Shown here: piece by piece, positions 3 through 34,113 of the stretch
Position numbering within the stretch: the stretch's first letter is position 1
How the letters are laid out: every line of letters begins with the position of its first letter
From: Candidatus Ruthturnera sp. Tsphm01
GTDB taxonomy: Bacteria; Pseudomonadota; Gammaproteobacteria; PS1; Pseudothioglobaceae
Length of the DNA stretch: 64,000 nucleotides
Direction: 5' to 3'
NCBI GenBank assembly: GCA_030142985.1
Contig: CP125320.1
Coordinates: 3,639-67,638, forward strand
Notes under the pieces: generated by a model
Seen by the model: the letters and a program-made list of their open reading frames with translations, nothing else
The model's database searches: none
What the model was told of the DNA's origin: nothing
Position numbers and translations under genes: made by a program

Positions 3-3000
3 GTGCAGGTGATAAACAATGTTTGGTCAATTGACACAGGAGCAAAAACACCTTCATCAGGAACATTAGGAGCTTTTGTAGATGGACAAAGTTATGACAT
101 TGTTGCAACCGTAACAGACGCAGCTGGCAATAGCATAAGCGATAACTCAAACAATGAGTTGACTATTGATACTACAGCCCCAGGCGCTCCAACCATCAAC
201 ACAGTATCAAATGATAACCTTATCAATGCAGCTGAGAACGCAGCAGGTTTTAATCTAACTGGTACAGGTGAAGTTGGTAGTACTATTATTGTTTCAGGAT
301 TTGAAACTGGTGTGGCTGACAAAACAACAAGCGTTGCTGTAGATGGCACTTGGTCAATTGCAATTGTTGATACAGATTTAGCTGATAATGGCTCAAATAC
401 TTTAACAGTAACACAAACAGACCTAGCAGGCAACACAAGCCCTGCTGCAACTAGAACAATCACCACAGATTTAATTGCACCAACAACCCCAAGCGTTGAT
501 AGTCTAACAACTAATGATTTAACCCCAACTATAACAGGTACAGCCACACTAACTAATGGTGAAACTTTAAGCGTAAGTGTTAATGGCGCAAGCTATAACA
601 ATGTGCAGGTGATAAACAATGTTTGGTCAATTGACACAGGAGCAAAAACACCTTCATCAGGAACATTAGGAGCTTTTGTAGATGGACAAAGTTATGACAT
701 TGTTGCAACCGTAACAGACGCAGCTGGCAATAGCATAAGCGATAACTCAAACAATGAGTTGACTATTGATACTACAGCCCCAGGCGCTCCAACCATCAAC
801 ACAGTATCAAATGATAACCTTATCAATGCAGCTGAGAACGCAGCAGGTTTTGATCTAACTGGTACAGGTGAAGCTGGCAGTACTATTATTGTTTCAGGAT
901 TTGAAACTGGTGTGGCTGACAAATGGACACTCGTTGCTGCAGATGGCACTTGGTCAATTGCAATTGTTGATACAGATTTAGCTGATAATGGCTCAAATAC
1001 TTTAACAGTAACACAAACAGACCTAGCAGGCAACACAAGCCCTGCTGCAACTAGAACAATCACCACAGATTTAATTGCACCAACAACCCCAAGCGTTGAT
1101 AGTCTAACAACTAATGATTTAACCCCAACTATAACAGGTACAGCCACACTCGCTAATGGTGAAACCTTAAGCGTAAGTGTTAATGGTGCAATCTATGACA
1201 ATGTAGAGGTGATAGGCAATGCTTGGTCAATTGACACAGAAACAAAAACACCTTCATCAGGAGTATTGGAAGCATTTGTAGATGGACAAAGTTATAACAT
1301 TGTTGCAATTGCAACAGACGCAGCTGGTAATAGTGCAAGAGATAACTCAATCAATGAGTTGACTATTGATAATACAGCCTCAAACGCTCCAACCATTGAC
1401 TCAGTCTCAAATGATGACCTTATCAATGCAGCTGAGAACGCAGCAGGTTTTAATCTAACTGGTACAGGTGAAGTTGGTAGTACTATTATTGTTTCAGGAT
1501 TTGAAACTGGTGTGGCTGACAAAACAACAACCGTTGCTGCAGATGGCACTTGGTTAATTGCAATTGTTGATACAGATTTAGCTGATAATGGCTCAAATAC
1601 TTTAAAAGCAACACAAACAGACTCAGTAGGCAACACAAGCCCTGCTGCAACTAGAACAATCACCATAGATTTAATTGCACCAACAACCCCAAGCGTTGAT
1701 AGTCTAACAACTAATGATTTAACCCCAACTATAACAGGTACAGCCACACTAACTAATGGTGAAACCTTAAGCGTAAGTGTTAATGGTGCAATCTATGACA
1801 ATGTAGAGGTGATAGGCAATGCTTGGTCAATTGACACAGAAACAAAAACACCTTCATCAGGAGTATTGGGAGCATTTGTAGATGGACAAAGCTATGATAT
1901 TGTTGCAACCGTAACAGACGTAGCTGGCAATAGTGCAAGCGATAACTCAATCAATGAGTTGACTATTGATAATACAGCCTCAAACGCTCCAACCATTGAC
2001 TCAGTCTCAAATGATGACCTTATCAATGCAGCTGAGAACGCAGCAGGTTTTAATCTAACTGGTACAGGTGAAGTTGGTAGTACTATTATTGTTTCAGGAT
2101 TTGAAACTGGTGTGGCTGACAAAACAACAAGCGTTGCTGTAGATGGCACTTGGTCAATTGCAATTGTTGATGCAGATTTGGCTGATAATGGCTCAAATAC
2201 TTTAAAAGCAACACAAACAGACTCAGTAGGCAACACAAGCCCTGCTGCAACTAGAACAATCACCATAGATTTAATTGCACCAACAACCCCAAGCGTTGAT
2301 AGTCTAACAACTAATGATTTAACCCCAACTATAACAGGTACAGCCACACTAACTAATGGTGAAACCTTAAGCGTAAGTGTTAATGGTGCAATCTATGACA
2401 ATGTAGAGGTGATAGGCAATGCTTGGTCAATTGACACAGAAACAAAAACACCTTCATCAGGAGTATTGGGAGCATTTGTAGATGGACAAAGCTATGATAT
2501 TGTTGCAACCGTAACAGACGTAGCTGGCAATAGTGCAAGCGATAACTCAATCAATGAGTTGACTATTGATAATACAGCCTCAAACGCTCCAACCATTGAC
2601 TCAGTCTCAAATGATGACCTTATCAATGCAGCTGAGAACGCAGCAGGTTTTAATCTAACTGGTACAGGTGAAGTTGGTAGTACTATTATTGTTTCAGGAT
2701 TTGAAACTGGTGTGGCTGACAAAACAACAAGCGTTGCTGTAGATGGCACTTGGTCAATTGCAATTGTTGATGCAGATTTGGCTGATAATGGCTCAAATAC
2801 TTTAACAGCAACACAAACAGACTCAGTAGGCAACACAAGCCCTGCTGCAACTAGAACAATCACCATAGATTTAATTGCACCAACAACCCCAAGCGTTGAT
2901 AGTCTAACAACTAATGATTTAACCCCAACTATAACAGGTACAGCCACACTAACTAATGGTGAAACCTTAAGCGTAAGTGTTAATGGTGCAATCTATGACA

Positions 3001-6000
3001 ATGTAGAGGTGATAGGCAATGCTTGGTCAATTGACACAGAAACAAAAACACCTTCATCAGGAGTATTGGGAGCATTTGTAGATGGACAAAGCTATGATAT
3101 TGTTGCAACCGTAACAGACGTAGCTGGCAATAGTGTAAGCGATAACTCAATCAATGAGTTGACTATTGATAATACAGCCTCAAACGCTCCAACCATTGAC
3201 TCAGTCTCAAATGATGACCTTATCAATGCAGCTGAGAACGCAGCAGGTTTTAATCTAACTGGTACAGGTGAAGTTGGTAGTACTATTATTGTTTCAGGAT
3301 TTGAAACTGGTGTGGCTGACAAAACAACAAGCGTTGCTGTAGATGGCACTTGGTCAATTGCAATTGTTGATGCAGATTTGGCTGATAATGGCTCAAATAC
3401 TTTAACAGCAACACAAACAGACTCAGTAGGCAACACAAGCCCTGCTGCAACTAGAACAATCACCATAGATTTAATTGCACCAACAACCCCAAGCGTTGAT
3501 AGTCTAACAACTAATGATTTAACCCCAACTATAACAGGTACAGCCACACTAACTAATGGTGAAACCTTAAGCGTAAGTGTTAATGGTGCAATCTATGACA
3601 ATGTAGAGGTGATAGGCAATGCTTGGTCAATTGACACAGAAACAAAAACACCTTCATCAGGAGTATTGGGAGCATTTGTAGATGGACAAAGCTATGATAT
3701 TGTTGCAACCGTAACAGACGTAGCTGGCAATAGTGCAAGCGATAACTCAATCAATGAGTTGACTATTGATAATACAGCCTCAAACGCTCCAACCATTGAC
3801 TCAGTCTCAAATGATGACCTTATCAATGCAGCTGAGAACGCAGCAGGTTTTAATCTAACTGGTACAGGTGAAGTTGGTAGTACTATTATTGTTTCAGGAT
3901 TTGAAACTGGTGTGGCTGACAAAACAACAAGCGTTGCTGTAGATGGCACTTGGTCAATTGCAATTGTTGATGCAGATTTGGCTGATAATGGCTCAAATAC
4001 TTTAACAGCAACACAAACAGACTCAGTAGGCAACACAAGCCCTGCTGCAACTAGAACAATCACCATAGATTTAATTGCACCAACAACCCCAAGCGTTGAT
4101 AGTCTAACAACTAATGATTTAACCCCAACTATAACAGGTACAGCCACACTAACTAATGGTGAAACCTTAAGCGTAAGTGTTAATGGTGCAATCTATGACA
4201 ATGTAGAGGTGATAGGCAATGCTTGGTCAATTGACACAGAAACAAAAACACCTTCATCAGGAGTATTGGGAGCATTTGTAGATGGACAAAGCTATGATAT
4301 TGTTGCAACCGTAACAGACGTAGCTGGCAATAGTGCAAGCGATAACTCAATCAATGAGTTGACTATTGATAATACAGCCTCAAACGCTCCAACCATTGAC
4401 TCAGTCTCAAATGATGACCTTATCAATGCAGCTGAGAACGCAGCAGGTTTTAATCTAACTGGTACAGGTGAAGTTGGTAGTACTATTATTGTTTCAGGAT
4501 TTGAAACTGGTGTGGCTGACAAAACAACAAGCGTTGCTGTAGATGGCACTTGGTCAATTGCAATTGTTGATGCAGATTTGGCTGATAATGGCTCAAATAC
4601 TTTAACAGCAACACAAACAGACTCAGTAGGCAACACAAGCCCTGCTGCAACTAGAACAATCACCATAGATTTAATTGCACCAACAACCCCAAGCGTTGAT
4701 AGTCTAACAACTAATGATTTAACCCCAACTATAACAGGTACAGCCACACTAACTAATGGTGAAACCTTAAGCGTAAGTGTTAATGGTGCAATCTATGACA
4801 ATGTAGAGGTGATAGGCAATGCTTGGTCAATTGACACAGAAACAAAAACACCTTCATCAGGAGTATTGGGAGCATTTGTAGATGGACAAAGCTATGATAT
4901 TGTTGCAACCGTAACAGACGTAGCTGGCAATAGTGCAAGCGATAACTCAATCAATGAGTTGACTATTGATAATACAGCCTCAAACGCTCCAATCATTAAC
5001 AAAGTATCAAATGATAACCTTATCAATGCAGCTGAGAACGCAGCAGGTTTTAATCTAACTGGTACAGGTGAAGTTGGTGATTTTATTACTGTTTCAGGAT
5101 TTGAAGCTGGTGTGGCTGACAAAACAACAAGCGTTGCTGAAGATGGCACTTGGTCAATTGCAATTGTTGATACAGATTTAGCTGATAATGGCTCAAATAC
5201 TTTAACAGCAACACAAACAGACTCAGTAGGCAACACAAGCCCTGCTGCAACTATAACAATCACCACAGATTTAATTGCACCAACAACCCCAAGCGTTGAT
5301 AGTCTAACAACTAATGATTTAACCCCAACTATAACAGGTACAGCCACACTAACTAATGGTGAAACCTTAAGCGTAAGTGTTAATGGTGCAATCTATGACA
5401 ATGTAGAGGTGATAGGCAATGCTTGGTCAATTGACACAGAAACAAAAACACCTTCATCAGGAGTATTGGGAGCATTTGTAGATGGACAAAGCTATGATAT
5501 TGTTGCAACCGTAACAGACGTAGCTGGCAATAGTGTAAGCGATAACTCAATCAATGAGTTGACTATTGATAATACAGCCTCAAACGCTCCAACCATTGAC
5601 TCAGTCTCAAATGATGACCTTATCAATGCAGCTGAGAACGCAGCAGGTTTTAATCTAACTGGTACAGGTGAAATTGGTAGTACTATTACTGTTTCAGGAT
5701 TTGAAACTGGTGTGGATGACAAAACAACAAGCGTTGCTGTAGATGGCACTTGGTCAATTGCAATTGTTGATACAGATTTGGCTGATAATGGCTCAAATAC
5801 TTTAACAGCAACACAAACAGACTCAGTAGGCAACACAAGCCCTGCTGCAACTAGAACAATCACCACAGATTTAATTGCACAATATTCACCAATAGTTGAT
5901 GGACCAACAATTAGTAATAGCCTATCCATATTTATAGGAGGTATAGCATGGATTGATGAGGGTGATACATTAAGCGTAAGTGTTAATGGTGCAACCTATA

Positions 6001-9000
6001 ACGATGTGCAGGTTATAAACCATGGTTGGAATATTGACATACAAACAGCAATACCTTCATCAGGAGTATTGGGAGCATTTGTAGATGGACAAAGCTATGA
6101 TGTTGTTGCAACTGTAACAGACGCAGCTGGCAATAGCGCAAGCGACAATACAATCAATGAGTTGATTATTGATGACACAGCCCCAGACGTCATTGTCCCA
6201 GGCGCTCCAATCATTAACAAAGTATCAAATGATAACCTTATCAATGCAGAAGAGAACGCAGCGGGTTTCAATCTAACTGGTACAGCCTACGCTAGTTATA
6301 CTGGTTATGCTAATCGTTTTGATATTGTTACAGTTTCTGGATTTAAAGGTGGTGATGAGAAAGCTGCATTCATTAATGAAGATCGTACTTGGTCATTTGC
6401 AATTACTGATGAGGATTTGTTTGATAATGCTTCAACCACTTTAACAGTAGTGCAACGCGTAAAGCCTTGTGCTACCTGCGACTACGTCCAAAGCCCTGTT
6501 GCAACTATAACAATCACCACAGATTTAATTGCACCAACAACCCCAAGCGTTGATAGTCTAACAACTAATGATTTAACCCCAACTATAACAGGTACAGCCA
6601 CACTGACTGATGGTGAAACCTTAAGCGTAAGTGTTAATGGTGCAATCTATGACAATGTAGAAGTGACAGGCAATGCTTGGTCAATTGACACAGAAACAAA
6701 AACACCTTCATCAGGAGTATTGGAAGCATTTGTAAATGGACAAAGCTATAACATTATTGCAATTGCAACAGACGCAGCTGGCAATAGTGCAAGAGATAAC
6801 TCAATCAATGAGTTGACTATTGATAATACAGCCTCAAACGCTCCAACCATTGACTCAGTCTCAGATGATGACCTTATCAATGCAGCTGAGAACGCAGCAG
6901 GTTTTGATCTAACTGGTACAGGTGAAGCTGGTAATACTATTATTGTTTCAGGATTTGAAGCTGGTGTGGCTGACAAAACAACAAGCGTTGCTGCAGATGG
7001 CACTTGGTTAATTGCAATTGTTGATGCAGATTTGGCTGATAATGGCTCAAATACTTTAACAGCAACACAAACAGACTCAGTAGGCAACACAAGCCCTGCT
7101 GCAACTAGAACAATCACCACAGATTTAATTGCACCAATAGACGGCGTATACGTTAATAATTTAATAACTAACAACCTAACTCCAACCATAACAGGTTCAT
7201 CAGCCACACTCGCTGATGGTGAAACCTTAAGCGTAAGTGTTAATGGTGCAATCTATGACAATGTGCAGGTGATAAGCCATACTTGGTTAATTAACACAGA
7301 AACAGCAATACCTTCATCAGGAATATTGGAAGCATTTGTAGATGGACAAAGCTATGATATTGTTGCAACTGTAACAGACGCAGCTGGCAATAGTGCAAGC
7401 GATAATACAACCAATGAGTTGACTATTGATAGCACAGCCTCAGACGTCCCAGACACACCAAACGCTCCAACCATTAGCTCAGTCTCAGGTGATAACCTTA
7501 TCAATGCAGCTGAGAACGTAGCAGGTTTTGATTTAACTGGTACAGGTGAAGCTGGTAATACTATTATTGTTTCAGGATTTGAAGCTGGTGTGGCTGACAA
7601 AACAACAACCGTTGCTGCAGATGGCACCTGGTCAATTACAATTGTTGATGCAGATTTGGCTGATAATGGCTCAAATACTTTAACAGCGGTACAAGTAAAC
7701 TCAGAAGGCATCCCAAGCCCTCTTGCAACTATAACAATCACCACAGATTTAATTGCACCAACAGCCCCAAGCGTTGATAGTCTAACAACTAATGATTTAA
7801 CCCCAACTATAACAGGTAGAGCTACACTGACTGATGGTGAAACCTTAAGCGTAATTGTTAATGGTGCAATCTATGACAATGTAGAGGTGATAGGCAATGC
7901 TTGGTCAATTGACACAGAAACAAAAACACCTTCATCAGGAGTATTGGAAGCATTTGTAGATGGACAAAGTTATAACATTGTTGCAATTGCAACAGACGCA
8001 GCTGGTAATAGTGCAAGAGATAACTCAAACAATGAGTTGACTATTGATAATACAGCCTCAAACGCTCCAACCATTGACTCAGTCTCAGATGATGACCTTA
8101 TCAATGCAGCTGAGAACGCAGCAGGTTTTAATCTAACTGGTACAGGTGAAGTTGGTGATTTTATTACTGTTTCAGGATTTGAAGCTGGTGTGGCTGACAA
8201 AACAACAAGCGTTGCTGTAGATGGCACTTGGTCAATTGCAATTGTTGATGCAGATTTGGCTGATAATGGCTCAAATACTTTAACAGCAACACAAACAGAC
8301 TCAGTAGGCAACACAAGCCCTGCTGCAACTAGAACAATCACCACAGATTTAATTGCACCAATAAACCTATTGGTTTATTATCTAACAACTAATGAGTTAA
8401 CCCCAACCATAAAAGGTGTACTCACACTCACTGATGGTGAAAGCGTAAGCGTAAGCGTGAGCGTTAATGGCGCAATCTATGATAATGTAGAGGTGATAGG
8501 CAATATCTGGTCAGTTGACACAGAAACAGTCACACCTTCATCAGGAACATTGGGAACTTTTGTAAATGGACAAAGCTATGACATTGTTGCAACCGTAACA
8601 GACGTAGCTGGAAATAGCGATATCTTAAGCAATGAGTTGATTTTTGATACCACAGCCCCAGACGCTCCAACCATTAACTCAGTCTCAGGTGACAACCTTA
8701 TCAATGCAGCTGAGAACGCAGCAGGTTTTAATCTAACTGGTACAGGTGAAGCTGGTAGTACTATTACTGTTTCAGGATTTGAAGCTGGTGTGAGTAACAA
8801 AAAAGTAGGCGTTGCTGAAGATGGCACTTGGTCAATTGCAATTGTTGACACAGATTTGGCTGATAATGGCTCAAACACTTTAATAGTAACAGATACAGAC
8901 CGAGCAGGCAACATAAGCCCTGCTGCAACTATAACAATCACCACAGATTTAATTGCACCAACAACCCCAAGCGTTGATAGTCTAACAACTAATGATTTAA

Positions 9001-12000: not shown

Positions 12001-15000
12001 ATAGTCTAACAACTAATGATTTAACCCCAACTATAACAGGTACAGCCACACTCACTGATGGTGAAACCTTAAGCGTAATTGTTAATGGTGCAATCTATGA
12101 CAATGTGCAGGTGATAAGCCATACTTGGTTAATTAACACAGAAACAGCAATACCTTCATCAGGAATGTTGGGTTTTTTTGTAGAAGGACAAAGCTATGAT
12201 GTTGTTGCAACTGTAACAGACGCAGCTGGCAATAGTGCAAGCGATAACTCAATCAATGAGTTGACTATTAATAATCCAGCCCCAGACGCTCCAACCATTA
12301 ACTCAGTCTCAGGTGATAACCTTATCAATGCAGCTGAGAACGCAGCAGGTTTTAATCTAACTGGTACAGGTAAAGTTGGTGATTTTATTACTGTTTCAGG
12401 ATTTGAAGCTGGTGTGGCTTACAAAACAACAAGCGTTGCTGAAGATGGCACTTGGTCAATTGCAATTGTTGATACAGATTTAGCTGATAATGGCTCAAAT
12501 ACTTTAACAGCAACACAAACAAACTCAGTAGGCAACACAAGCCCTGCTGCAACTATAACAATCACCACAGATTTAATTGCACCAACAACCCCAAGCGTTG
12601 ATAGTCTAACAACTAATGATTTAACCCCAACTATAACAGGTACAGCCACACTGACTGATGGTGAAACCTTAAGCGTAAGTGTTAATGGTGCAATCTATGA
12701 CAATGTAGAAGTGACAGGCAATGCTTGGTCAATTGACACAGAAACAAAAACACCTTCATCAGGAGCATTGGGAGCATTTGTAGATGGACAAAGCTATGAT
12801 ATTGTTGCAACCGTAACAGACGTAGCTGGCAATAGTGCAAGAGATAACTCAATCAATGAGTTGACTATTGATAATACAGTCTCAAACGCTCCAACCATTG
12901 ACTCAGTCTCAAATGATGACCTTATCAATGCAGAAGAGAACGCAGCAGGTTTTAATCTAACTGGTACAGGTGAAGTTGGTAGTACTATTACTGTTTCAGG
13001 ATTTGAAACTGGTGTGGGTGACAAAACAACAAGCGTTGCTGTAGATGGCACTTGGTCAATTGCAATTGTTGATACAGATTTAGCTGATAATGGCTCAAAT
13101 ACTTTAAAAGCAACACAAACAGACTCAGTAGGCAACACAAGCCCTGCTGCAACTAAAACAATCACCACAGATTTAATTGCACCAACAACCCCAAGCGTTG
13201 ATAGTCTAACAACTAATGATTTAACCCCAACTATAACAGGTACAGCCACACTCACTGATGGTGAAACCTTAAGCGTAATTGTTAATGGTGCAATCTATGA
13301 CAATGTAGAGGTGATAGGCAATGCTTGGTCAATTGACACAGAAACAAAAACACCTTCATCAGGAGCATTGGGAGCATTTGTAGATGGACAAAGCTATGAT
13401 ATTGTTGCAACCGTAACAGACGTAGCTGGCAATAGTGCAAGCGATAACTCAATCAATGAGTTGACTATTGATAATCCAGCCTCAAACGCTCCAATCATTA
13501 ACAAAGTATCAAATGATAACCTTATCAATGCAGAAGAGAACGCAGCAGGTTTTAATCTAACTGGTACAGGTGAAGTTGGTGATTTTATTACTGTTTCAGG
13601 ATTTGAAGCTGGTGTGGCTGACAAAACAACAAGCGTTGCTGAAGATGGCACTTGGTCAATTGCAATTGTTGATACAGATTTAGCTGATAATGGCTCAAAT
13701 ACTTTAACAGCAACACAAACAAACTCAGTAGGCAACACAAGCCCTGCTGCAACTATAACAATCACCACAGATTTAATTGCACCAACAACCCCAAGCGTTG
13801 ATAGTCTAACAACTAATGATTTAACCCCAACTATAACAGGTACAGCCACACTGACTGATGGTGAAACCTTAAGCGTAAGTGTTAATGGTGCAATCTATGA
13901 CAATGTAGAGGTGATAGGCAATGCTTGGTCAATTGACACAGAAACAAAAACACCTTCATCAGGAGTATTGGGAGCATTTGTAGATGGACAAAGCTATAAC
14001 ATTATTGCAATTGCAACAGACGCAGCTGGTAATAGTGCAAGAGATAACTCAATCAATGAGTTGACTATTGATAATACAGCCTCAAACGCTCCAACCATTG
14101 ACTCAGTCTCAGATGATGACCTTATCAATGCAGAAGAGAACGCAGCAGGTTTTAATCTAACTGGTACAGGTGAAATTGGTAGTACTATTACTGTTTCAGG
14201 ATTTGAAACTGGTGTGGATGACAAAACAACAAGCGTTGCTGTAGATGGCACTTGGTCAATTGCAATTGTTGATACAGATTTGGCTGATAATGGCTCAAAT
14301 ACTTTAACAGCAACACAAACAGACTCAGTAGGCAACACAAGCCCTGCTGCAACTAGAACAATCACCACAGATTTAATTGCACAATATTCACCAATAGTTG
14401 ATGGACCAACAATTAGTAATAGCCTATCCATATTTATAGGAGGTATAGCATGGATTGATGAGGGTGATACATTAAGCGTAAGTGTTAATGGTGCAACCTA
14501 TAACGATGTGCAGGTTATAAACCATGGTTGGAATATTGACATACAAACAGCAATACCTTCATCAGGAGTATTGGGAGCATTTGTAGATGGACAAAGCTAT
14601 GATGTTGTTGCAACTGTAACAGACGCAGCTGGCAATAGCGCAAGCGACAATACAATCAATGAGTTGATTATTGATGACACAGCCCCAGACGTCATTGTCC
14701 CAGGCGCTCCAATCATTAACAAAGTATCAAATGATAACCTTATCAATGCAGAAGAGAACGCAGCGGGTTTCAATCTAACTGGTACAGCCTACGCTAGTTA
14801 TACTGGTTATGCTAATCGTTTTGATATTGTTACAGTTTCTGGATTTAAAGGTGGTGATGAGAAAGCTGCATTCATTAATGAAGATCGTACTTGGTCATTT
14901 GCAATTACTGATGAGGATTTGTTTGATAATGCTTCAACCACTTTAACAGTAGTGCAACGCGTAAAGCCTTGTGCTACCTGCGACTACGTCCAAAGCCCTG

Positions 15001-18000: not shown

Positions 18001-21000
18001 CTGGCAATAGCATAAGCGATAACTCAAACAATGAGTTGACTATTGATACTACAGCCCCAGGCGCTCCAACCATCAACACAGTATCAAATGATAACCTTAT
18101 TAATGCAGCTGAGAACGCAGCAGGTTTTAATCTAACTGGTACAGGTGAAGTTGGTGATTTTATTACTGTTTCAGGATTTGAAGCTGGTGTGGCTGACAAA
18201 ACAACAAGCGTTGCTGAAGATGGCACTTGGTCAATTGCAATTGTTGATACAGATTTAGCTGATAATGGCTCAAATACTTTAACAGTAACACAAACAGACC
18301 TAGCAGGCAACACAAGCCCTGCTGCAACTAGAACAATCACCACAGATTTAATTGCACCAACAACCCCAAGCGTTGATAGTCTAACAACTAATGATTTAAC
18401 CCCAACTATAACAGGTACAGCCACACTAACTAATGGTGAAACTTTAAGCGTAAGTGTTAATGGCGCAAGCTATAACAATGTGCAGGTGATAAACAATGTT
18501 TGGTCAATTGACACAGGAGCAAAAACACCTTCATCAGGAACATTAGGAGCTTTTGTAGATGGACAAAGCTATGACATTGTTGCAACTGCAACAGACGTAG
18601 CTGGTAATAGTGCAAGCGATGACCCAATCAATGAGTTGACTATTGATAGTGCAGTCCCATTAGTTGCATCAGTGACAATTTCAGGCTTAGACAGTTTAAA
18701 TAATGAAAAAACAACTAAATTAAGATTGGGTGATAAGGTTAAAGTTTCTATCCAGATGAGTGAAGATGTTAGCGTAGATACTACAGGTGGCTCTCCAACA
18801 TATACAATTAATGTTGATAATGTATATAAACAAGCAACTTATGATGCTGATTTATCAAGTGCAAATACTTTGGTATTTACTTATACAACAGAAGAAGGTA
18901 TTGATGATACTTCAGGTGGTATTACAGCAGATGCAAATATGCTAAACTTTAATGGTGGAACAATACAAGATTTAGTAGGCAATGCTATTTCTTTATCTCA
19001 AGTTGCAATGCCAGTGGCAAATGATAATTTACCAGATGGTATAACTGTTATAGCTTCTGGAGAAGCAGAAGAAAATCACCTAGCATCAAATCTTATAGAT
19101 GGTATTGTCGATTACTCTAATGCTGAGTTGGAAAGGTACTTAGGCATTGGAGATAAAGCAGTAACACTAGCTTATAGCGAACAACTTCAGGCAAACGGCG
19201 TTCGTATCTATTGGGATGCTGAAGCATGGCAAGCAACTCCAAGAAAGCCAACCGCATTTGATGTTAAGATTTATACAAATAGTGGCGACTCAGAAGCAAC
19301 AGAGACGATTGCTTTTACTTCTTTGAATTGGGTTGAGAATAGCGCTTTAGGGTCTGGGGTTTATTATGCTGATTTAGATTTTTCAGGGGATAAAACCTTT
19401 GGCAAATTAGATTTGATTGGTAGTTCTGAAGATGTTAGTAAAATTTACTATCATGAAGTTCGATTATTAATAAATAAAAATGTTGTGCTTACATCAGAAG
19501 TTGCTATAAGTGATAATCTGGTTTCTATTGATGCCACAGTTCCAGACGCTCCAACCATTGATAGTTTAATAGTCAATAGCCTAATAGCCCCAACCATAAC
19601 AGGTACAGCCACACTCGCTGATGATGAAACCCTAAGCGTGAGTGTTAATGGCGCAAGCTATAACAATGTAGAGGTGACAGACAATACTTGGTCAATTAAC
19701 ACAGAAACAAAAACACCTTCATCAGGAATATTGGGAGCATTTGTAGATGGACAAAGCTATGACATTGTTGCAATTGCAACAGATGCAGCTGGTAATATTG
19801 CAAGAGATAACTCAAGCAATGAATTAGTTATAAACATTCTTAAGCATGTTCGTACTACTACTTTAGTTGAGCCTGATGGTAAAACTGATGGAGATGACAA
19901 CGGTCCTCAAATAGCAGCACTGGGTACAGACGGGGCATTTGTCGTCACTTGGGTTGGCATAGGCGCTAATGACAATGATCGCTCTATTTTTGTGCAGAGG
20001 TTTAAGGCTGATGGCACTAAGGATGGTGGTAGTATTGAAGTTGAGCCTTATAACCTCCTTAATGAAGATGACATCGATCCTCAAATAATATCACTGGGTA
20101 CAGATGGGGCATTTGTCGTCACTTGGGCTGGTGGTGATGGTGTTAATAGTGATACCTCTATTTTTGTGCAGAAGTTTGATGTTGATGGCGCTAAGGATGG
20201 GCTTGCTATTGAAATTGAGCCTGATGGCAGAACTAATGCACATGACCTCCGTCCTCAAATAACAGCACTAGGCACAGATGGGGCATTTGTCGTCGCTTGG
20301 GATGGCATAGGCGCTGATGACGATGATATTTCTATTTTTGTGCAGAAGTTTGATATTCATGGCAATGAGGATGGCGGTACTATTGAAATTGAACCTAGTA
20401 CTAACAATGATAAACATGACAGATACGCTCAAATAACAGCACTAGGCACAGATGGAGAGTTTGTCGTCACTTGGGTTGGTGAAGGTAATGTACACTCTGA
20501 TACCTCTATTTTTATGCAGAAGTTTAAGGCTGATGGCACTAAGAATGGTGGCACTGATGAAATTGAACCTAGTACTAACGATGCTGGAAATGACTACGAT
20601 CATCAAACAACAGCACTGGGTTCAGATGGAGCATTTGTCGTCACTTGGGCTGGTGAAAATCTTGCCAGCTCTTCTGATAGGTCTCTTTTTGTGCAGAAGT
20701 TTGATGTTGATGGCAATAAGGTTGGCGGTAGTACTGAAATTGGGGTTGATGACCAAGCTTATGGAACTGACCGCCGTCCTCAAATAATGTCACTGAGTGA
20801 ATATGGAGCATTTGTCGTCACTTGGATTGGCTTATCTAGTGACGATTCTGATACCTCTATTTATATACAGAGGTTTGATGTTGATGGCAATAAGTATGGC
20901 GGTACTGTTGAAATTGAGCCTGATGGCAGAACTAATGCAAATGACTTCACTCCTCAAATAACAGAATTGGGTGGAAAAAATGGAGCCTTTGTCGTCACTT

Positions 21001-24000
21001 GGTCTGGTTTAGGCGCTAATGACAATGATCGTTCTATTTTTATACAGAGGTTTGATGTTGATGGTCCTAGTGGGGGCACTGTTGAAATTGAGCCTGATAA
21101 CATCCCTTATGGAGATGACTTAAACCCTCAAACAGAAGCAGTGGGTGCATATGGAGAGTTTGTCGTCACTTGGAGAGGTCTAGACAATGATGGGGATACC
21201 TCTATTTTTGTGCAGAAGTTTAATGCTGATGGCACTAAGAGCGTTATTATCCTAGAGACTCCAACCATTAACTCAGTATCAAATGATAACATTATCAATG
21301 CAGAAGAGAACGCAGCAGGTTTTGATTTAACTGGTACAGGTAAATCTGGTAATATTATTACCGTTTCAGGATTTGAAGCTGGTGTGGATGACAAAAAAGC
21401 ACTCGTTGCTACAGATGGCACTTGGTCAATTGCAATTGTTGATGAAGATTTGGCTGATAATGGCTCAAACACTTTAACAGCAACACAAACAGAAACATCA
21501 GGCGTCACAAGTCCTGCTGCAACTATAACAATCACCACAGATTTAATTGCACCAAAAACCCCAAGCGTTAATAGTCTAACAACTAATGATTTAACCCCAA
21601 CTATAACAGGTACAGCCACACTGACTGATGGTGAAACCTTAAGCGTAAGTGTTAATGGCGCAAGCTATAACAATGTACAGGTGATAAACGGTACTTGGTC
21701 AATTAACACAGAAACAAAAACACCTTCATCAGGAGCATTGGAAGCATTTGTAAATGGACAAAGCTATGACATTATTGCAATTACAACAGATGTAGTTGGT
21801 AATAGTGCAAGAGATAGTTCAAACAATGAATTGACTATTGATGTCACAGCCCCAGACGCCCCAGACGTTCCAACCATTGACTCAGTCTCAGATGATGACC
21901 TTATCAATGCAGCTGAAAACGCAGCAGGTTTTGATTTAACTGGTACAGGTGAAGCTGGTAATACTATTATTGTTTCAGGATTTGAAGCTGGTGTGGATGA
22001 CAAAAAAGCACTCGTTGCTACAGATGGCACTTGGTCAATTGCAATTGTTGATGCAGATTTGGCTGATAATGGCTCAAATACTTTAATAGCAATAGAAACC
22101 TTACACAATCTCCGAAGCCCTGCTGTAACTAGAATAATCACCACAGATTTAATTGCACCAACAACCCCAGGCGTTGATAGTTTAACAATTTATAACCCAA
22201 CCCTAGCTCCAACCATAACAGGTACAGCCACACTCGCTGATGATGAAACCCTAAGCGTGAGTGTTAATGGCGCAAGCTATGACAATGTAAAGGTGACAGG
22301 CAATGCTTGGTCAATTGACACAGAAACAAAAACACCTTCATCAGGAGTATTGGGAGCATTTGTAGATGGACAAAGCTATGATATTGTTGCAACTGTAACA
22401 GACGTAGCTGGCAATAGCGTAAGCGATAGCTCAAGCAATGAATTGGTTATAAAGCATACTTATACTACTTTAGTTGAGCCTGATGGTAAAGCTGATGGAG
22501 ATGACAACGGTCCTCAAATAGCAGCACTGGGTACAGACGGGGCATTTGTCGTCACTTGGACTGGCATAGGCGCTAATGACAATGATCGCTCTATTTTTGT
22601 GCAGAGGTTTAAGGCTGATGGCACTAAGGATGGTGGTAGTATTGAAGTTGAGCCTTATAACTTCCTTAATGGAGATGACATCGATCCTCAAATAACAGCG
22701 TTGGGTACAGATGGGGCATTTGTCGTCACTTGGGTTGGTGTTAGTGTTGTTGGTGGTGATACCTCTATTTTTGTGCAGAAGTTTGATGTTGATGGCGCTA
22801 AGGATGGGCTTGCTATTGAAATTGAGCCTGATGGTAAGACTAATGGAACTGACCTCCATCCTCAAATAATAGCACTAGGCACAGATGGAGAGTTTGTCGT
22901 CGCTTGGGATGGCATAGGCGCTGATGACGATGATACCGTTATTTTTGTGCAGAAGTTTGATATTTATGGCAATGAGGATGGCGCTATTATTGAACTTGAG
23001 CCTGATATTCGCAGTTCTGGATCTGACACCGATCCTCAAATAACAGCACTAGGCACAGATGGAGAGTTTGTTGTCACTTGGATTGGCATGTCTTATCATG
23101 ATGATAGATCCGTTTTTATGCAGAAGTTTGATGCTGATGGCATTAAGATTGGTGGCACTGTTGAAATTGAGCCTGATGACCGAATTACACAACATGACCA
23201 CGATCATCAAACAGCAGCAGTGGGTACAGATGGAGCATCTGTCATCACTTGGTTTGCTCCAAGTACTGCTCGCTATGAAGAAAGATCAGACGCTATTTAT
23301 GGTATTTATGTACAGAAGCTTAAGGCTGATGGCACTAAGGATGGCGGTAGTACTGAAATTTGGCCTGATGATCAATTTTATGGAAATGGCTCCGATCCTC
23401 AAATAACAGCGTTGGGCGCAGATGAAGCATTTGTCATCACTTGGATTGGCTTATCTGATTACGGTGGTGATACCTCTATTTATATACAGAGGTTTGATGT
23501 TCATGGCAATAAGGATGGCGGCACTATTGAAATTGAGCCTGATGGTAACTCTCTTGAAAATGACTACACTCCTAAAACATTAGCATTGGGTGGAGATGGA
23601 GCCTTTGTCGTCGTTTGGTCTGGTTTCGACCTTGATGATCGTTCTATTTTTGTGCAGAGGTTTGATATTCATGGCAATAAGGATGGCGGCACTGTTAAAA
23701 TTGAGCCTGATAACAACTCTTATGGAGATGACTTAGATCCTCAAATAGAAGCACTAGGTATATATGGAGCATTTGTCGTCACTTGGAAAGGTGTAGACAC
23801 TAATGGGGATACCTCTATTTTTGTGCAGAAGTTTAATGCTGATGGCACTAAGAGCACTGCTATCAAAGACAACTCAAAAGTTCCAACCATTAACACAGTA
23901 TCAAATGATAACCTTATCAATGCAGAAGAGAACGCAGCAGGTTTTGATCTAACTGGTACAGGTGAAGTTGGTAGTACTATTACTGTTTCAGGATTTGAAG

Positions 24001-26882
24001 CTGGTGTGGCTGACAAAACAACAAGCGTTGCTGTAGATGGCACTTGGTCAATTGCAATTGTTGATACAGATTTAGCTGATAATGGCTCAAACACTTTAAC
24101 AGTAGCACAAATAAGCTTAGAATACATCGAAAGCCCTACTGTAACTATAACAATCACCACAGATTTAATTGTTCCAGACGCTCCAATCATTAACTCAGTC
24201 TCAGATGATGACCTTATCAATGCAGAAGAGAACGCAGCAGGTTTTGATCTAACTGGTACAGGTGAAGTTGGTAGTATTATTACTGTTTCAGGATTTGAAA
24301 CTGGTGTGGATGACAAAACAACAAGCGTTGCTGTAGATGGCACTTGGTCAATTGCAATTGTTGATACAGATTTGGCTGATAATGGCTCAAATACTTTAAC
24401 AGCAACACAAACAGACCTAGCAGGCAACACAAGCCCTGCTGCAACTATAACAATCACTACAGATTTAATTGCGCCAACAACCCCCCCAAGCGTTGATAGT
24501 CTAACAACTAATGATTTAACCCCAACTATAACAGGTAGAGCTACACTGACTGATGGTGAAACCTTAAGCGTAAGTGTTAATGGTGCAAGCTATAACAATG
24601 TACAGGTGATAGGTAATACTTGGTGGAGACTTGATACACAAGTAGCAATACTTTCATCAGGAACATTGGGAGCATTTGTAGATGGACAAAGTTATGACAT
24701 TGTTGCAACTGCAACAGACGCAGCTGGTAATAGTGTAAGCGATGACTCAAACAATGAGTTGACTATTAATCTGGCATCAATTAGTGCACCAATAGTTGAC
24801 TTAATTATAACTAATACCATAACTCCAACCGTATCAGGTAGTGCAACCTTGCTTGATGGAGAGACATTAAGTGTTAGTGTCAATGGCGCTACTTATGATA
24901 ATGTTGCTGTTGATGGGTTTGGTAATTGGATAATAAATACAGAAACAGCTAGTGTATCAAGTGGTTCACTGGGAGCATTTAAATATGGACAAAACTATGA
25001 TGTTGTGGCAACAATAACTGATTTAGCAACAAACAGCATGAGTGATTCCTCTATTGATGAGCTTACTATACGAAATCAAGAGTATGTACTGCAGTATCCT
25101 ACTTTAGTTGAGCCTGAGGGTAAAATTGATGGAGATGACTTTGATCCTCAAATAACAGCGTTGGGTACAGAGGGAGCATTTGTGGTTACTTGGCGCGGTC
25201 AATCTATTGACAATGATAACTCTATTTTTGTGCAGAAGTTTGATGTTGATGGCGCTAAGGATGGGCTTGCTGTTGAAATTGAATTTAATGGAAATAAACC
25301 TAAACCTCAAATAACAGCGTTGGGTACAGAGGGAGCATTTGTGGTTACTTGGAATGCTCAAAACTCTAGTAACACTGATGATTACTCTATTTTTGTGCAG
25401 AAGTTTGATGTTGATGGCGCTAAGGATGGGCTTGCTGTTGAAATTGATTCTGAGGATGGTGTAACTAATGGATATGACTATAATCCTCAAATAACAGCGT
25501 TGGGTACAGAGGGAGCATTTGTGGTTACTTGGCATGGTTTAAATGCTAGTCACTCTGGTCACTCTATTTTTGTGCAGAAGTTTGATGTTGATGGCGCTAA
25601 GGATGGGATTGCTGTTGAATTTGATTCTGATGGATCTAATAATGGATTTGACCTCCATCCTCAAATAACAGCGTTGGGTACAGAGGGAGCATTTGTGGTT
25701 ACTTGGCATGGTGGTGTTGTTGATGGTGATACCTCTGTTTTTGTGCAGAAGTTTGATGTTGATGGCGCTAAGGATGGGCTTGCTATTGAAATTGAGCCTG
25801 ATGGTAGAACTAATGGATATGACTTTATTCCTCAAATAACAGCGTTGGGTACAGAGGGAGCATTTGTGGTTACTTGGCTCGGTCAATCTATTGACAATGA
25901 TAACTCTATTTTTGTGCAGAAGTTTGATGCTAATGGCGCTGATGGGGGTAGTGTTGAAATTGAGCCTAATGGTAAAACTGATGGAGATGACTTTGATCCT
26001 CAAATAACAGCGTTGGGTACAGAGGGAGCATTTGTGGTTACTTGGCGCGGTCAATCTATTGACAATGATTACTCTATTTTTGTGCAAAAGTTTGATGTTA
26101 ATGGCGCTAAGGATGGGCTTGCTGTTGAAATTGAGCCTGAGGGTAGAGCTAATGGAGATGACCTTGAACCTCAAATAACAGCGTTGGGTACAGAGGGAGC
26201 ATTTGTGGTTACTTGGAGTGGTCAAGGTGCTAGTGACGATGATTACTCTATTTTTGTGCAAAAGTTTGATGTTAATGGCGCTAAGGATGGGCTTGCTATT
26301 GGAATTGAGCCTGAGGGTAGAGCTAGTGGAAATGACCTCATTCCTCAAATAACAGCGTTGGGTACAGAGGGAGCATTTGTGGTTACTTGGCATGGTTTAG
26401 ACGCTAATTGGGATAACTCTATTTTTGTGCAGAAGTTTGATTTAATTAGCAATGTATTAATGGGTACAAGTGCTGCTGAACACCTGTATGGCAGCAATAA
26501 CAACGATGTTATTATTGGCGATGGTGGTGATGATGTTCTTTCAGGGTTTGATGGTATAGATATATTTAAGTATGTAAGTGGCGGTTCTGCTGCAAACGGT
26601 AATGATATTATTACTGATTTTGTGATTGGCAGTGGTGGTGATAAGCTTGACCTAAGTGATTTACTTATAGGTGAGACGAGTGACACTTTGGCTAACTTTA
26701 TTGAAGTCATAGATAGTAATGGCGCTGATGATGGTGGTGATATTCTTATTAAGATTGATGTTGATGGTGGCAATGATTTTTTTGGCACACCAGATATTAC
26801 TATCACCTTAACAGGTGCAGGTATTACTGGTGCTGAAACAACATTGGCTAGTCTAATAACGGATAATATTGTGATTGGTTAA
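3..26882 (+). CDS. Giant repeat-rich RTX-type adhesin / type I secretion substrate, 5'-truncated by the window edge (at least 8,959 aa)
   Basis: Single uninterrupted ORF from the window edge to TAA at 26880-26882; bases 1-600 are already mid-repeat, so the start is upstream. The translation has ~31 tandem 200-aa units of two Ig-like domains, then unique Big_5-like and discoidin-like modules. Three 8-repeat propeller-like blocks follow, separated by more Ig-like domains. It ends with nonapeptides [27 protein letters not shown] and a [10 protein letters not shown]-type C-terminal T1SS target region. The protein is acidic, T/D/N/S/A/V-rich and almost Cys-free. Confidence 0.9.
1741..4980 (+). repeat. 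Run of about 5.4 near-perfect 600-bp copies (0-1 substitutions per unit)
   Basis: Line-by-line comparison. 1741-2340 vs 2341-2940 differ only at 2161-2220 (aaaagca vs aacagca). 2941-3540 differs only at tagtgtaagc (3131-3140). 2341-2940, 3541-4140 and 4141-4740 look identical by eye. Confidence 0.9.
5350..8210 (+). repeat. Higher-order segmental duplication, copy 1 (partner at about 13850-16710, offset 8502/8499 nt)
   Basis: The unique variant stretch starting aatattcaccaatagttgat at 5881 recurs at 14383. The text stays the same through ~7137/15639. A ~200-bp patch differs, then identity resumes at 7341/15840 and runs to ~8210/16710. Confidence 0.8.
13850..16710 (+). repeat. Higher-order segmental duplication, copy 2 (partner at about 5350-8210)
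   Basis: See copy 1. The boundaries are fuzzy because the flanks are themselves 600-bp repeat units. Confidence 0.8.
18651..19028 (+). other. Unique domain inside the giant ORF, SbsA/Big_5-like Ig domain (tentative)
   Basis: Non-repeated segment [14 protein letters not shown]...[27 protein letters not shown]...[41 protein letters not shown]. The 'x-V-x-F-S-E-x-V ... L-x-F-x-Y-T-V ... GGTIxDxxGN' pattern is typical of that Ig-like family. Assigned by eye only. Confidence 0.4.
19029..19475 (+). other. Unique ~150-aa domain inside the giant ORF, discoidin / F5-8 type C (galactose-binding-like) candidate
   Basis: [31 protein letters not shown]...[24 protein letters not shown]...[14 protein letters not shown]...[10 protein letters not shown]...[11 protein letters not shown]. 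Length, the 'A-x-N-L-I-D-G' opening, a W-rich core and the terminal 'E-V-x-L' resemble carbohydrate-binding discoidin modules. Not verifiable without an HMM search. Confidence 0.35.
19854..21242 (+). repeat. Propeller-like block 1: eight ~57-aa repeats ([18 protein letters not shown]..D.[24 protein letters not shown])
   Basis: Eight occurrences of the [AE]FVV[TA]W core, each preceded by PQI..LG and followed by SIFVQ[KR]F; the block starts with TTLVEPDG. Four short beta-strand-like segments per repeat suggest one propeller blade per repeat. Confidence 0.7.
22464..23855 (+). repeat. Propeller-like block 2: eight ~57-aa repeats, en-bloc paralogue of block 1
   Basis: Eight FV[VI].W cores. The first ~250 nt are almost identical to block 1 (22468 onward vs 19861 onward), and divergence grows toward the 3' end. 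Confidence 0.7.
25101..26441 (+). repeat. Propeller-like block 3: eight ~57-aa repeats with an internally homogenised DNA core
   Basis: The 48-nt string cctcaaataacagcgttgggtacagagggagcatttgtggttacttgg occurs eight times without change, starting near 25146, 25305, 25485, 25657, 25829, 25998, 26169 and 26343. Confidence 0.75.
26490..26879 (+). other. RTX nonapeptide repeats plus C-terminal type I secretion target region of the giant ORF
   Basis: Three consecutive nonapeptides at 26490-26570 fit GGxGxDxUx loosely ([27 protein letters not shown]). They are followed by [23 protein letters not shown]...[10 protein letters not shown]...ITITLTGAG, which resembles the VCA0849-subclass T1SS C-terminal domain. 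Confidence 0.75.
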
Positions 26883-26891
26883 GTTGTTAAT

Positions 26892-27146
26892 GCGATTAAA
26901 TCTCTCAATATAGGTATTCTGAGTTGGTTTTCCTGGTTGGATATATTTAAGTTCAATGTCATTTACTTGTGCCCAATCTTGTAATGCTTGGTCGATATAC
27001 TCAGAGCCATTATCACTTGATTGAATTAGGTTTGCATCGCCATTCAACTAAATGCTCTAGTGATTGAATAACTCGTCTTGCTGGCAGTGATAAATCAGCA
27101 TCGATATTTAACCCTTCTCAGTTGTAATCATCCACCACATTAAAGG
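26892..27146 (-). pseudogene. IS3-family transposase (orfB, DDE/rve core) internal fragment, degraded
   Basis: The reverse complement aligns with 63745-64000 of the IS3 copy at the window end (FNVVDDYN.EGLNID.DLSLPARRVIQSLE...DNG.EYI.QAL.DWAQ...YIQ.GKPTQN.Y.ERFNR). It carries an in-frame TGA (aactgagaa vs aatcgagaa) and a 2-nt deletion (atcaagtgataat vs atcagatgtgataat). Both ends are truncated. Confidence 0.85.
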
Positions 27147-27189
27147 ATATGAATATTACGTAGAGGTAACACCTAAGACAAATAAAATT

Positions 27190-27414
27190 ATGAGTATTGT
27201 TGCCACTCGAAAAATAAAAAGTCCTGAAAGTTGCATAAAGTCAAAAGAAGCAACGTCACAAGTCATGTTGCAAATTTATGCTCAAGTAGGGAAACTATCT
27301 AATGTATTTGGATCAATGGATAGGTTTGTTATAGTAGACTGTAATAAAAGTGTCCTAGATTTAATGTATATCGACAAAGCGACAGCACTATTATGGAAAA
27401 GAGAAATTATTTAA
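27190..27414 (+). CDS. Orphan hypothetical ORF (74 aa) in IS-debris region
   Basis: ORF only. No convincing RBS or motif. Confidence 0.2.
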   Translation: MSIVATRKIKSPESCIKSKEATSQVMLQIYAQVGKLSNVFGSMDRFVIVDCNKSVLDLMYIDKATALLWKREII

Positions 27415-27478
27415 TGGTTCCATCAACAAAACTTAACAAAAAGATAATAAAATAAAAAACTTAACAAGAGCAATATTA

Positions 27479-27880: not shown

Positions 27881-28040
27881 AGTATTTGTGAGGGAGTTGA
27901 TAATGCAATATTCATTCTAAGATACAACCATCTTAAACTGAGTTTGATATCGGTATAAGAGAAACTTGAATTGGAAACTGCAAGAATTAATAAAAGTGGT
28001 TTACAACCTATAAATAGATAACAATAAAATATAAAAGGAT

Positions 28041-28558
28041 TTGAATTCACATCATAAGTGCAACACTCGTTAGTCGATCAAAAGGCATATTAGTTACTCT
28101 TTTAATCCGACAAGAAAAAGAAGTGAAACATGAAAAAATATACACAATTGAGCTGCGAACAAAGATACTATATTTACCAACAAAACCACACAGGCTGCAA
28201 ATGATGCGATTATGAAACTACTAACGCCGATCAAGCACTTGGCTGAAGTCCTAACATTTGACAATGGTCGTAAGCTTAGTTGGTATGATAAACTGGCTGA
28301 AACACTGGCTTGTGATACTTATTTTGCTAAACCATATCACTCTTGGGAATATGGATTAAACGAGAACCATAACAGACTGTTAATGCAATTCTTCCCTAAA
28401 CAAATGGCATTAGATAATGTGAATGAAAAAAGAGGCTTTCAGGGCTACGGATTTAATGAATAATAAACCTAGAAAAAGACCCTGTTTGAGGTCTTTGCTG
28501 AGTTAACTGGTAAAGACTATTTTTTAAATGGAAGTGTTGTGCTTATGGGTTGAATTCG
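28041..28558 (+). mobile_element. IS30-family element, internally deleted non-autonomous derivative retaining both terminal inverted repeats
   Basis: Left end is ttgaattcacatcataagtgcaacact (28041-28067). The reverse complement of the right end (28532-28558) is gacgaattcaacccataagcacaacact. Between them lie only N- and C-terminal pieces of an IS30-type transposase. Confidence 0.7.
28129..28463 (+). pseudogene. IS30-family transposase remnant (N-terminal 24 aa piece plus C-terminal 83 aa piece)
   Basis: 28129-28203 encodes MKKYTQLSCEQRYYIYQQ..., the IS30 N-terminal HTH start. 28212-28463 encodes TFDNGRKLSWYDKLAETLACDTYFAKPYHSWEYGLNENHNRLLMQFFPK, the IS30 DDE C-terminal signature (TFDNG.EF...YFA.PY.SWERG.NEN.NGL.RQ.FPK). 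Confidence 0.75.
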
Positions 28559-28794
28559 TCAAGTTTAATGTTGAGAAAAAGATAAGGTTAATGACCTAAT
28601 TTTGTAAAAACATTTAGGCGAGTAACTTATACAGATTAAGGTAGTGATTATTAAAGTGTGAGACGAATGGGCTGGGTATTTTTTTTAGATTAGCCGTAGG
28701 AATTTTATATTATGATTTTTTACCTCAGTAAGGGGTAAATAAGAAGCAAGCAAGTGTAGAATATTTTTAAAAAATAACCAAAAACTTTCATTTC

Positions 28795-33931: not shown

Positions 33932-33948
33932 TAAAGCATAATAGGTTT

Positions 33949-34022: not shown

Positions 34023-34037
34023 AGATGGAAGGGTTGT

Positions 34038-34113
<76 letters not shown>

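Follow-up and report, generated by a model that had tools for sequence, protein, structure and literature searches.

Among described adhesins exported by type I secretion systems (T1SS), MpIBP of the free-living bacterium Marinomonas primoryensis (1.5 MDa; PDB entries 4P99 and 5IRB; PMC5550230) carries, in this order, an extender of ~120 identical 104-aa repeats, a ligand-binding region with sugar-, peptide-, and ice-binding domains, RTX repeats, and an uncleaved T1SS signal. Its extender measures 0.6 µm for ~120 domains (PMC5550230). The LapA/LapBCE/LapDG system of Pseudomonas fluorescens likewise exports a repeat adhesin through a T1SS, in that case one with vWFA and Calx-beta modules. FrhA of Vibrio cholerae (VC_A0849), after which we take the T1SS target domain model TIGR03661 to be named, has an immunoglobulin (Ig)-like extender, and its peptide- and sugar-binding domains arise out of Ig domains that are split. 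Here we describe a stretch of 64,000 nucleotides from Candidatus Ruthturnera sp. Tsphm01 (assembly GCA_030142985.1, contig CP125320.1, positions 3,639 to 67,638 of the forward strand), hereafter the window. Its first 26.9 kb probably form the 3′ part of a gene for a giant RTX-type adhesin, exported by a T1SS, in a Ruthia-clade clam symbiont. An earlier note on this DNA had proposed an adhesin of the LapA/SiiE/MpIBP type, and the proposal is strengthened by matches to hidden Markov models (HMMs) above curated thresholds, by homology to the MpIBP extender, and by a confident structure model.

The window protein has the same order of parts as MpIBP. The extender domains of the two proteins are directly homologous, with phmmer E values of 5.7e-19 to the MpIBP RII tetra-tandemer (4P99) and 1.2e-10 to the RTX-adhesin entry 5IRB, and both proteins are extremely acidic. 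Near-identical DNA repeats strain assembly in both genes. They differ in the extender, which here alternates between two domain types in 200-aa super-units of 23 classes, and in the RTX block, which has only two to three nonapeptides. They also differ in the tip, made here of three predicted 8-bladed propellers and an orphan module, and in the host, here an intracellular symbiont. Export through a T1SS is predicted as for LapA, but no vWFA or Calx-beta module was found in the window protein; no lap gene was found in the window. With FrhA it shares the subclass of C-terminal T1SS target domain and an Ig-like extender with interspersed, here predicted, binding domains, whereas its propellers stand in line between complete Ig domains, as judged from domain boundaries in the sequence.

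Large secreted proteins of the RTX class, often near mobile elements, also occur elsewhere in the SUP05/symbiont clade. Sayavedra et al. (PMC4612132) argued for host-directed RTX proteins in the related Bathymodiolus symbionts, whose MARTX proteins have an effector/YD architecture as opposed to the adhesin architecture of the window protein. In 2015, they reported neither RTX-class toxin-related genes nor transposases in the two clam symbiont genomes then available (PMC4612132). With a single exception, the Ca. Ruthia lineages all have lapB, lapC, and lapE together with a secreted agglutinin RTX according to Breusing et al. (bioRxiv 10.1101/2020.10.19.345819), who reported none of these in Ca. 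Vesicomyosocius.

An uninterrupted reading frame of 26.9 kb

The open reading frame (ORF) spans positions 3 to 26882 of the plus strand in frame 3, with 8,959 sense codons, a stop codon at 26880-26882, no internal stop, and no N bases. It is the longest open stretch in any frame of the window, sixfold beyond the next, and it is open at the 5′ window edge, its N terminus lying outside the window. Simulating 1% random substitution on the ORF produced ~9 stop codons, whereas the actual ORF has none; the open frame is therefore not due to chance. The translated fragment has a mass of 916 kDa and a pI of ~4, and contains 14% Thr, 10% Asp, 14% Asp plus Glu, and four Cys in 8,959 residues. Both the 5′-incomplete ORF of at least 8,959 aa described in the earlier note and its mass estimate of ~0.9 MDa are in agreement with these values. 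The gene accounts for at least 1.76% of the 1.52-Mb genome, and its GC content is 40.4% versus 37.1% in the rest of the window. We conclude that the gene is real and probably encodes part of a giant surface adhesin of at least 916 kDa. Its parts are the following.

3..18644, plus strand: extender (aa 1-6214), 61 Ig-like domains of ~100 aa in ~30 super-units of 200 aa (600 nt)
18645..19037, plus strand: odd Ig-like module (aa 6215-6345), previously termed Big_5-like, with a characteristic 10-residue ending
19038..19517, plus strand: orphan module of ~160 aa (aa 6346-6505), previously termed discoidin-like
19518..19844, plus strand: one Ig-like domain of type B (aa 6506-6614) with its PTITG anchor at aa 6530
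19845..21272, plus strand: predicted propeller A (aa 6615-7090), eight blades of ~58 aa, from blade anchors and AlphaFold2
21273..22454, plus strand: quartet of Ig-like domains arranged A-B-A-B (aa 7091-7484), anchored at aa 7098, 7199, 7301, and 7403, with Ca_tandemer stretches
22455..23867, plus strand: predicted propeller B (aa 7485-7955), whole-block duplicate of A
23868..25088, plus strand: quartet of Ig-like domains arranged A-A-B-B (aa 7956-8362), anchored at aa 7972, 8072, 8174, and 8275
25089..26456, plus strand: predicted propeller C (aa 8363-8818), eight blades that share an identical 16-residue core
26457..26882, plus strand: C-terminal secretion module and stop codon (aa 8819-8959, 141 aa), two to three RTX nonapeptides and the T1SS target domain

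The extender array

Motif anchors revealed 70 Ig-like domains, 34 of type A (11-residue anchor) and 36 of type B ('LTPTITG'). The 61 domains located before aa 6215 make up the extender, close to the ~60 of the earlier count, and the other nine are interleaved in the tip. Types A and B alternate along the extender, which matches the Pfam families Big_13 and Big_6 above their curated cut-offs. Ca_tandemer (NF033510), the NCBIfam model of Ca2+-stabilised repeat-containing adhesins, gave 213 to 223 bits against a cut-off of 50, and the extender domains are predicted to bind Ca2+.

Among the ~30 super-units, 23 classes can be distinguished at 97% identity. Super-units 3 to 7 (window ~1,700-4,800) are 99.5 to 100% identical in protein sequence, with 99.8 to 100% DNA identity at a lag of 600, and because they are so similar their copy number depends on the quality of the long-read assembly. 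Super-units 9 to 13 recur as 23 to 27 at a lag of 8.5 kb, with exact matches of up to 1,090 nt. The first super-unit of the window resembles the last unit of the extender, with an exact match of 351 nt between positions 341 and 18218.

The four Cys residues are found at aa 2156-2159 and 4990-4993 (window ~6468-6479 and ~14970-14981), within a 'PCATCDY' insertion. This insertion is carried by a divergent 217-aa super-unit, whose two copies are 100% identical and belong to the 8.5-kb internal duplication. On the minus strand, ~20 ORFs of 151 to 153 aa with GTG starts, spaced by 600 nt between 92 and 18424, were dismissed as by-products of the repeats and not genes.

The C terminus and type I secretion

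The extreme C terminus matched TIGR03661 (T1SS_VCA0849) over model positions 1-88 of 91, with 41.9 bits against a cut-off of 17.6, which bears out the C-terminal secretion signal proposed previously. The RTX repeats of that proposal were found in reduced form: a HemolysinCabind stretch is present, but it amounts to two or three nonapeptides and reached 22.6 bits against a cut-off of 23. Only 'GDGGDDVLS' and 'GFDGIDIFK' fitted the RTX motif. The C terminus was also matched by phmmer to the C-terminal RTX domains of serralysins (E of 2e-4). Pfam and NCBIfam scans of the tip and C terminus detected no pore-forming, acylation, effector/CPD, or protease domains and no long RTX arrays. Membership in the pore-forming RTX toxin/MARTX class was rejected, as these scans of the tip and C terminus showed neither a long RTX array nor toxin domains.

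The distal tip

The tip (aa 6215-8818) consists of the odd Ig-like module, the orphan module, one Ig-like domain, propeller A, four Ig-like domains, propeller B, four more Ig-like domains, and propeller C. Its non-extender modules sit between the extender and the RTX/signal region, where RTX adhesins carry their ligand-binding domains, and they are predicted to bind ligands as well.

Two assignments of the earlier note found no support. The module called Big_5-like (aa 6215-6345) had no PF13205 match, and its sole family match was Big_12 with an E value of 0.077. Its only relatives in the word-index search described below, two 316-aa proteins (P0121 and P0122) with no Pfam annotation, carry a twice-repeated domain that shares 33% identity with it. 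The module called discoidin-like (aa 6346-6505) had no Pfam match, including PF00754, and no NCBIfam match at E ≤ 10, nor any relevant match among PDB sequences. Its single-sequence AlphaFold model had a pLDDT of 36 and was unusable for the fold. Homologues were searched for with a word index of 5.8 billion proteins, in which all listed matches are shorter than ~1.75 times the query length. No homologue of the orphan module was among the matches listed. Given this length range, the lack of giant orthologues in the word-index search is uninformative.

Three propellers of a large family

The three propeller blocks contain 24 blades of ~58 aa, eight per block, with a spacing of 53 to 64 aa (mostly 56 to 60). 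Modelling of block A by AlphaFold2 with an alignment of 73 sequences yielded eight times four strands with a pLDDT of 92.0 and a pTM of 0.92. On this model, the propeller-like blocks that the earlier note had placed between Ig domains are true 8-bladed β-propellers. Foldseek searches of the PDB with propeller A returned generic propellers only, at ~12% identity and TM-scores of 0.4 to 0.56, the best being CylK (7FH6, query TM-score of 0.56), and the profile of the family found no solved relative by sequence.

Block B is 70% and block C 57% identical to block A. Corresponding blades of A and B pair up (A1-B1 96%, A2-B2 80%, A3-B3 82%, and A8-B8 75% identity), and by these alignments the two blocks are a whole-block duplication, blade for blade. 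Propeller C contains tandem repeats of 171/339 nt with 82 to 85% matches. The 16-residue core found unchanged in all eight of its blades points to recent internal amplification or homogenisation. In the 73-sequence alignment, only G and W are nearly invariant, and no polar residue is conserved.

Blocks A, B, and C matched neither TIGR02608 (delta-60) nor PF17164 (DUF5122), even at E ≤ 10, and the sole model to touch them was NF053835 (PDIAV_lipo), with 28 to 30 bits against a cut-off of 90. They nevertheless resemble the delta-60/DUF5122 families in the ~58-aa repeat period and the predicted propeller fold. Eight of the 73 aligned family members match DUF5122, and the propeller of the Arcobacter homologue described below reaches the TIGR02608 cut-off (76.9 versus 76.5). 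As homologues aligned with E values of 1e-53 to 1e-76 carry these weak DUF5122 or threshold-level TIGR02608 matches inside the aligned region, the blocks appear distantly tied, by transitive homology only, to the delta-60/DUF5122 family, as a divergent branch of it. That family, known from sequence alone, is without an assigned function, and the literature that could be searched mentions it once, in passing. With the propeller profile, 68,815 representative proteins were found at E ≤ 1e-3 and 49,845 at E ≤ 1e-10, many of them giant multi-propeller proteins; the profile includes some flanking RTX columns, which makes the lower-scoring tail less certain. In the word-index search, the family co-occurs with RTX, serralysin C-terminal, SLH, type IX secretion system tail, and dockerin domains. 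Related propellers are also present in small RTX proteins of 600 to 800 aa with HemolysinCabind and Peptidase_M10_C tails. Thirty of the 73 family proteins match Pfam CopC, with a best E value of 1.5e-14 inside the blades. We treated this as a spurious, repeat-driven match and discarded a CopC identity for the propellers, although such a match could mislead automatic annotation.

Two uncharacterised proteins are the closest propeller relatives, one of 2,630 aa in Desulfotalea psychrophila LSv54 (CR522870.1; 44 to 48% identity) and one of 6,971 aa in Arcobacter nitrofigilis DSM 7299 (CP001999.1; 39 to 40% identity). Both contain the same propeller family, with these identities over ~460 aa. In both, propellers (six in the Arcobacter protein and two in the Desulfotalea protein, compared with three here) are joined with Big_13, Big_6, and Big_5 Ig-like domains. 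The combination of Ig-like domains and propellers, which the earlier note did not recognise from described members, is thus not unique to the window. Both genes adjoin genes for an outer membrane efflux protein (OEP), an ABC transporter, and an AprE-type membrane fusion protein (MFP), which is independent evidence that this combination of modules travels through type I secretion. The Arcobacter protein ends as the window protein does, with a last propeller, a short RTX stretch, and a related C-terminal domain (40% identity over 135 aa); a like C terminus could be shown for this protein but not for that of Desulfotalea. The extenders differ: of 150 representatives, a single one had a match to the Ig unit, with 30% identity. 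Both bacteria are free-living, unlike the host of the window protein.

Selection on the gene

Crude Nei-Gojobori (NG86) estimates of the ratio of nonsynonymous to synonymous substitution rates (dN/dS) between intragenic paralogues ranged from 0.65 to 1.35. For propeller A versus C, the same crude estimates were 0.46 in the strands and 1.31 in the loops. The frame was kept without a single stop, even though paralogous blocks differ by a dS of 0.13 to 0.4. Because the strands are constrained, the loops are not, and there are no stops, the pattern fits a maintained frame with a constrained fold and surfaces that would be free or diversifying. Relaxed selection may be an alternative reading of these ratios.

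Genomic surroundings and host

The window is part of a single 1,523,273-bp record. Its proteins share 90% identity clusters with those of the symbionts of Abyssogena phaseoliformis and Isorropodon fossajaponicum and of a Ca. Ruthia metagenome-assembled genome. Judged from these clusters, the host is a sulfur-oxidising symbiont of vesicomyid clams of the Candidatus Ruthia clade. The sulfur-oxidiser or symbiont background suspected in the earlier note is supported by the presence of SoxY and SoxA in the window and by housekeeping proteins that cluster at ≥90% with those of vesicomyid symbionts. The C-terminal 598 aa of the adhesin had no relative in scans of assembled-genome or metagenome contigs, and an exact 24-mer present in 27 copies in the array had no match in assembled-genome contigs. 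Relatives of the Ig unit were 32 to 40% identical in the metagenome scans, along with 59 to 68% identical fragments from marine metagenomes.

Past the adhesin stop codon are remnants of two insertion sequences (IS).

26892..27032, minus strand: IS3-family transposase remnant, 10 nt past the adhesin stop (NF033516, E of 3e-11, model positions 276-322 of 369 only)
28212..28463, plus strand: IS30-family transposase remnant (NF033563, E of 5.6e-21, model positions 181-252 of 267)

The IS3 remnant marks a rearranged 3′ flank. The 1.9 kb that follow the adhesin stop (26883-28790) are gene-poor, with these remnants and small orphan ORFs, and no terminator-like hairpin was found after the stop. For the same organism, a 5.6-kb Logan contig from short reads has its break at 28528, ~65 nt past the IS30 remnant.

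Further downstream lie frdAB, the malic-enzyme gene, tuf, nusG, rplAJ, rpoBC, trpE, soxY, soxA, dnaE, comEC, coaBC, ribD, recA, and recX. The tRNA-Tyr, tRNA-Gly, and tRNA-Thr genes upstream of tuf (33847-34113) and the tRNA-Trp gene downstream of it (35418-35493) are in the usual bacterial order. The frdA/sdhA and frdB/sdhB genes are intact at 29848-32498 and deleted in OG214, the Abyssogena phaseoliformis symbiont (L002 8728-9602), where gcvP and the deleted frdAB are found upstream of the malic-enzyme gene. As this contrast shows, gene loss has been uneven and genomes have been rearranged within the Ruthia clade. Recombination and competence functions have been lost in the Vesicomyosocius clade and in R. 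magnifica according to published work. In the window, comEC (55524-57815, minus strand) and recA with recX (60406-61903) are intact, which is consistent with a less eroded lineage that recombines. The N-terminal extension of the listed recA ORF, with a GTG start, is implausible.

At the far end of the window (62254-64000), an ABC exporter gene is truncated after ~250 codons, leaving the transmembrane domain only, by an IS3 element (orfA 63069-63335, orfB from 63323). It is probably a pseudogene. We considered this gene as the T1SS transporter and rejected it, as it lacks a C39-like domain and its best matches are of the TAP/MsbA type, with HlyB scoring only 26.6 bits.

Discussion

The analysis favours a cell surface adhesin reaching outward on a long rod, and the mode of action of its family suggests how it would work. 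The acidic, nearly Cys-free chain would be recognised via its uncleaved C-terminal target domain and threaded C terminus first through a duct made of an ABC transporter, an MFP, and a TolC-like protein. Outside the cell, millimolar Ca2+ would fold the short RTX block and, by homology with MpIBP RII, stiffen the Ig-like domains into a rod. At ~5 nm per domain, a value taken from MpIBP, the at least 61 domains would reach at least ~0.3 µm. The rod would present the odd Ig-like module, the orphan module, and the three 8-bladed propellers with four Ig-like domains between one and the next, while an N-terminal plug, assumed by analogy, would hold the protein in the outer membrane component. Most probably, the propellers serve as multivalent heads that bind ligands on host or particle surfaces and do not catalyse reactions, because their blades are near-identical, no polar residue is conserved, the loops evolve fast, and they occupy the position of ligand-binding domains.

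Several observations weigh against this picture. The window starts inside the gene, and the N terminus, on which retention versus release turns, lies beyond it. No T1SS gene is found in the 37 kb downstream (window 26.9-64 kb), and the sole ABC exporter gene of the window, interrupted by an IS3 element, encodes an Atm1/MsbA-like protein without a C39-like domain. The RTX block is a single stretch below its cut-off. The 3′ flank of the gene is IS debris, and at the syntenic site of OG214, a close relative, there is no adhesin gene, nor any trace of one by tblastn. The intragenic dN/dS of ~1 is what relaxed selection in an eroding genome would also give. The Foldseek neighbours of the propeller, at ~12% identity, are mostly enzymes (CylK, the polysaccharide lyases PL42/PL24/PL25, sialidases, and the glycoside hydrolases GH43/GH145), and members of the propeller family have no known ligands.

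Some of these points would also suit a giant RTX exoprotein that is released after secretion by a T1SS and acts on distant host membranes or glycocalyx, in the manner of the toxin-related RTX proteins of Bathymodiolus symbionts, with propellers that might be carbohydrate-active enzymes. The gene is entered midway, the region of a retention module being outside the window, the best structural neighbours of the propeller include lyases, sialidases, and GH43/GH145, and related propellers occur in the 600- to 800-aa RTX proteins with HemolysinCabind/Peptidase_M10_C tails. Host-directed RTX proteins have moreover been argued for in mussel symbionts (PMC4612132). We nevertheless regard release as quite unlikely. 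A rigid rod of at least 61 Ca_tandemer domains homologous to MpIBP RII is known only as a cell surface extender (PMC5550230), and neither a long RTX array nor any effector, protease, or pore-forming domain came up in the Pfam and NCBIfam scans. The structural matches are limited to ~12% identity with TM-scores of 0.4 to 0.56, no polar residue is conserved across the family, and near-identical blades are unusual for propeller enzymes with a single active site.

The state of the locus could alternatively mean that the gene is decaying or orphaned, having been acquired with mobile elements or having lost its secretion genes by IS rearrangement, so that its product is not exported and its frame is not yet broken. 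The IS remnants from 10 nt past the stop, the 1.9-kb gene-poor flank, the IS3-cut ABC exporter nearby, the repeat dN/dS of ~1, the deviating GC content, the absence at the OG214 site, and the lack of a close relative in the genome and metagenome scans would all be in keeping with it. However, 26.9 kb without stops or frameshifts speak against decay, since under neutrality the older tip (dS of 0.13 to 0.4) should hold several stops, and in the longer comparison the dN/dS of the propeller strands is 0.46. Surface proteins usually show a high dN/dS in loops and extender surfaces, and Breusing et al. (bioRxiv 10.1101/2020.10.19.345819) report the T1SS and RTX agglutinin as conserved in the Ruthia clade. 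Decay thus appears very unlikely to us. We judge it no more probable that assembly errors account for part of the size, through miscounting or misjoining of near-identical 600-nt units, and that the real gene is shorter, longer, or split. Super-units 3 to 7 offer ~3 kb of 99.5 to 100% identity for such errors, as do the exact repeats of up to 1,090 nt at the 8.5-kb lag and the 351-nt match of the first window unit to the last extender unit, and for MpIBP, even PacBio reads did not let the authors complete the repeat array (PMC5550230). Yet 23 of the 30 super-units are distinguishable at 97%, which makes most of the array anchorable by long reads, the frame is kept across every junction, and the source is one single record. 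The unique 8.3-kb tip and C terminus are independent of the repeat count.

A T1SS-exported surface adhesin therefore remains our preferred explanation. Part of it was already known, as the T1SS and RTX agglutinin of Ruthia were reported in the 2020 preprint and similar architectures exist in sequenced genomes. What lifts the gene above routine is its intracellular host with a reduced genome and its triple propeller tip from a vast unstudied family. More speculatively, and with a likelihood that we consider rather low, the propellers might be heads that bind host glycans or host proteins for attachment to clam cells in an extracellular phase. The adhesin and its T1SS would then form the molecular basis of the occasional host-to-host transfer and recombination that keep Ruthia genomes larger. 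If so, the loss of adhesin and T1SS would accompany strict maternal transmission in Ca. Vesicomyosocius, and a first function would be at hand for a propeller family of ~50,000 representative sequences without annotation.

A maternally transmitted intracellular symbiont that devotes at least 1.76% of a 1.52-Mb genome to one intact gene for a surface protein suggests, by this outlay, that it still needs a hold on something outside itself, be it the host membrane, eggs, other symbionts, or a new host. Given the reported distribution, with presence in Ruthia and absence in Vesicomyosocius, the gene is a concrete candidate for why the two clades differ in transmission fidelity. For the propeller family, the structure and the ligand of one member would annotate tens of thousands of proteins.

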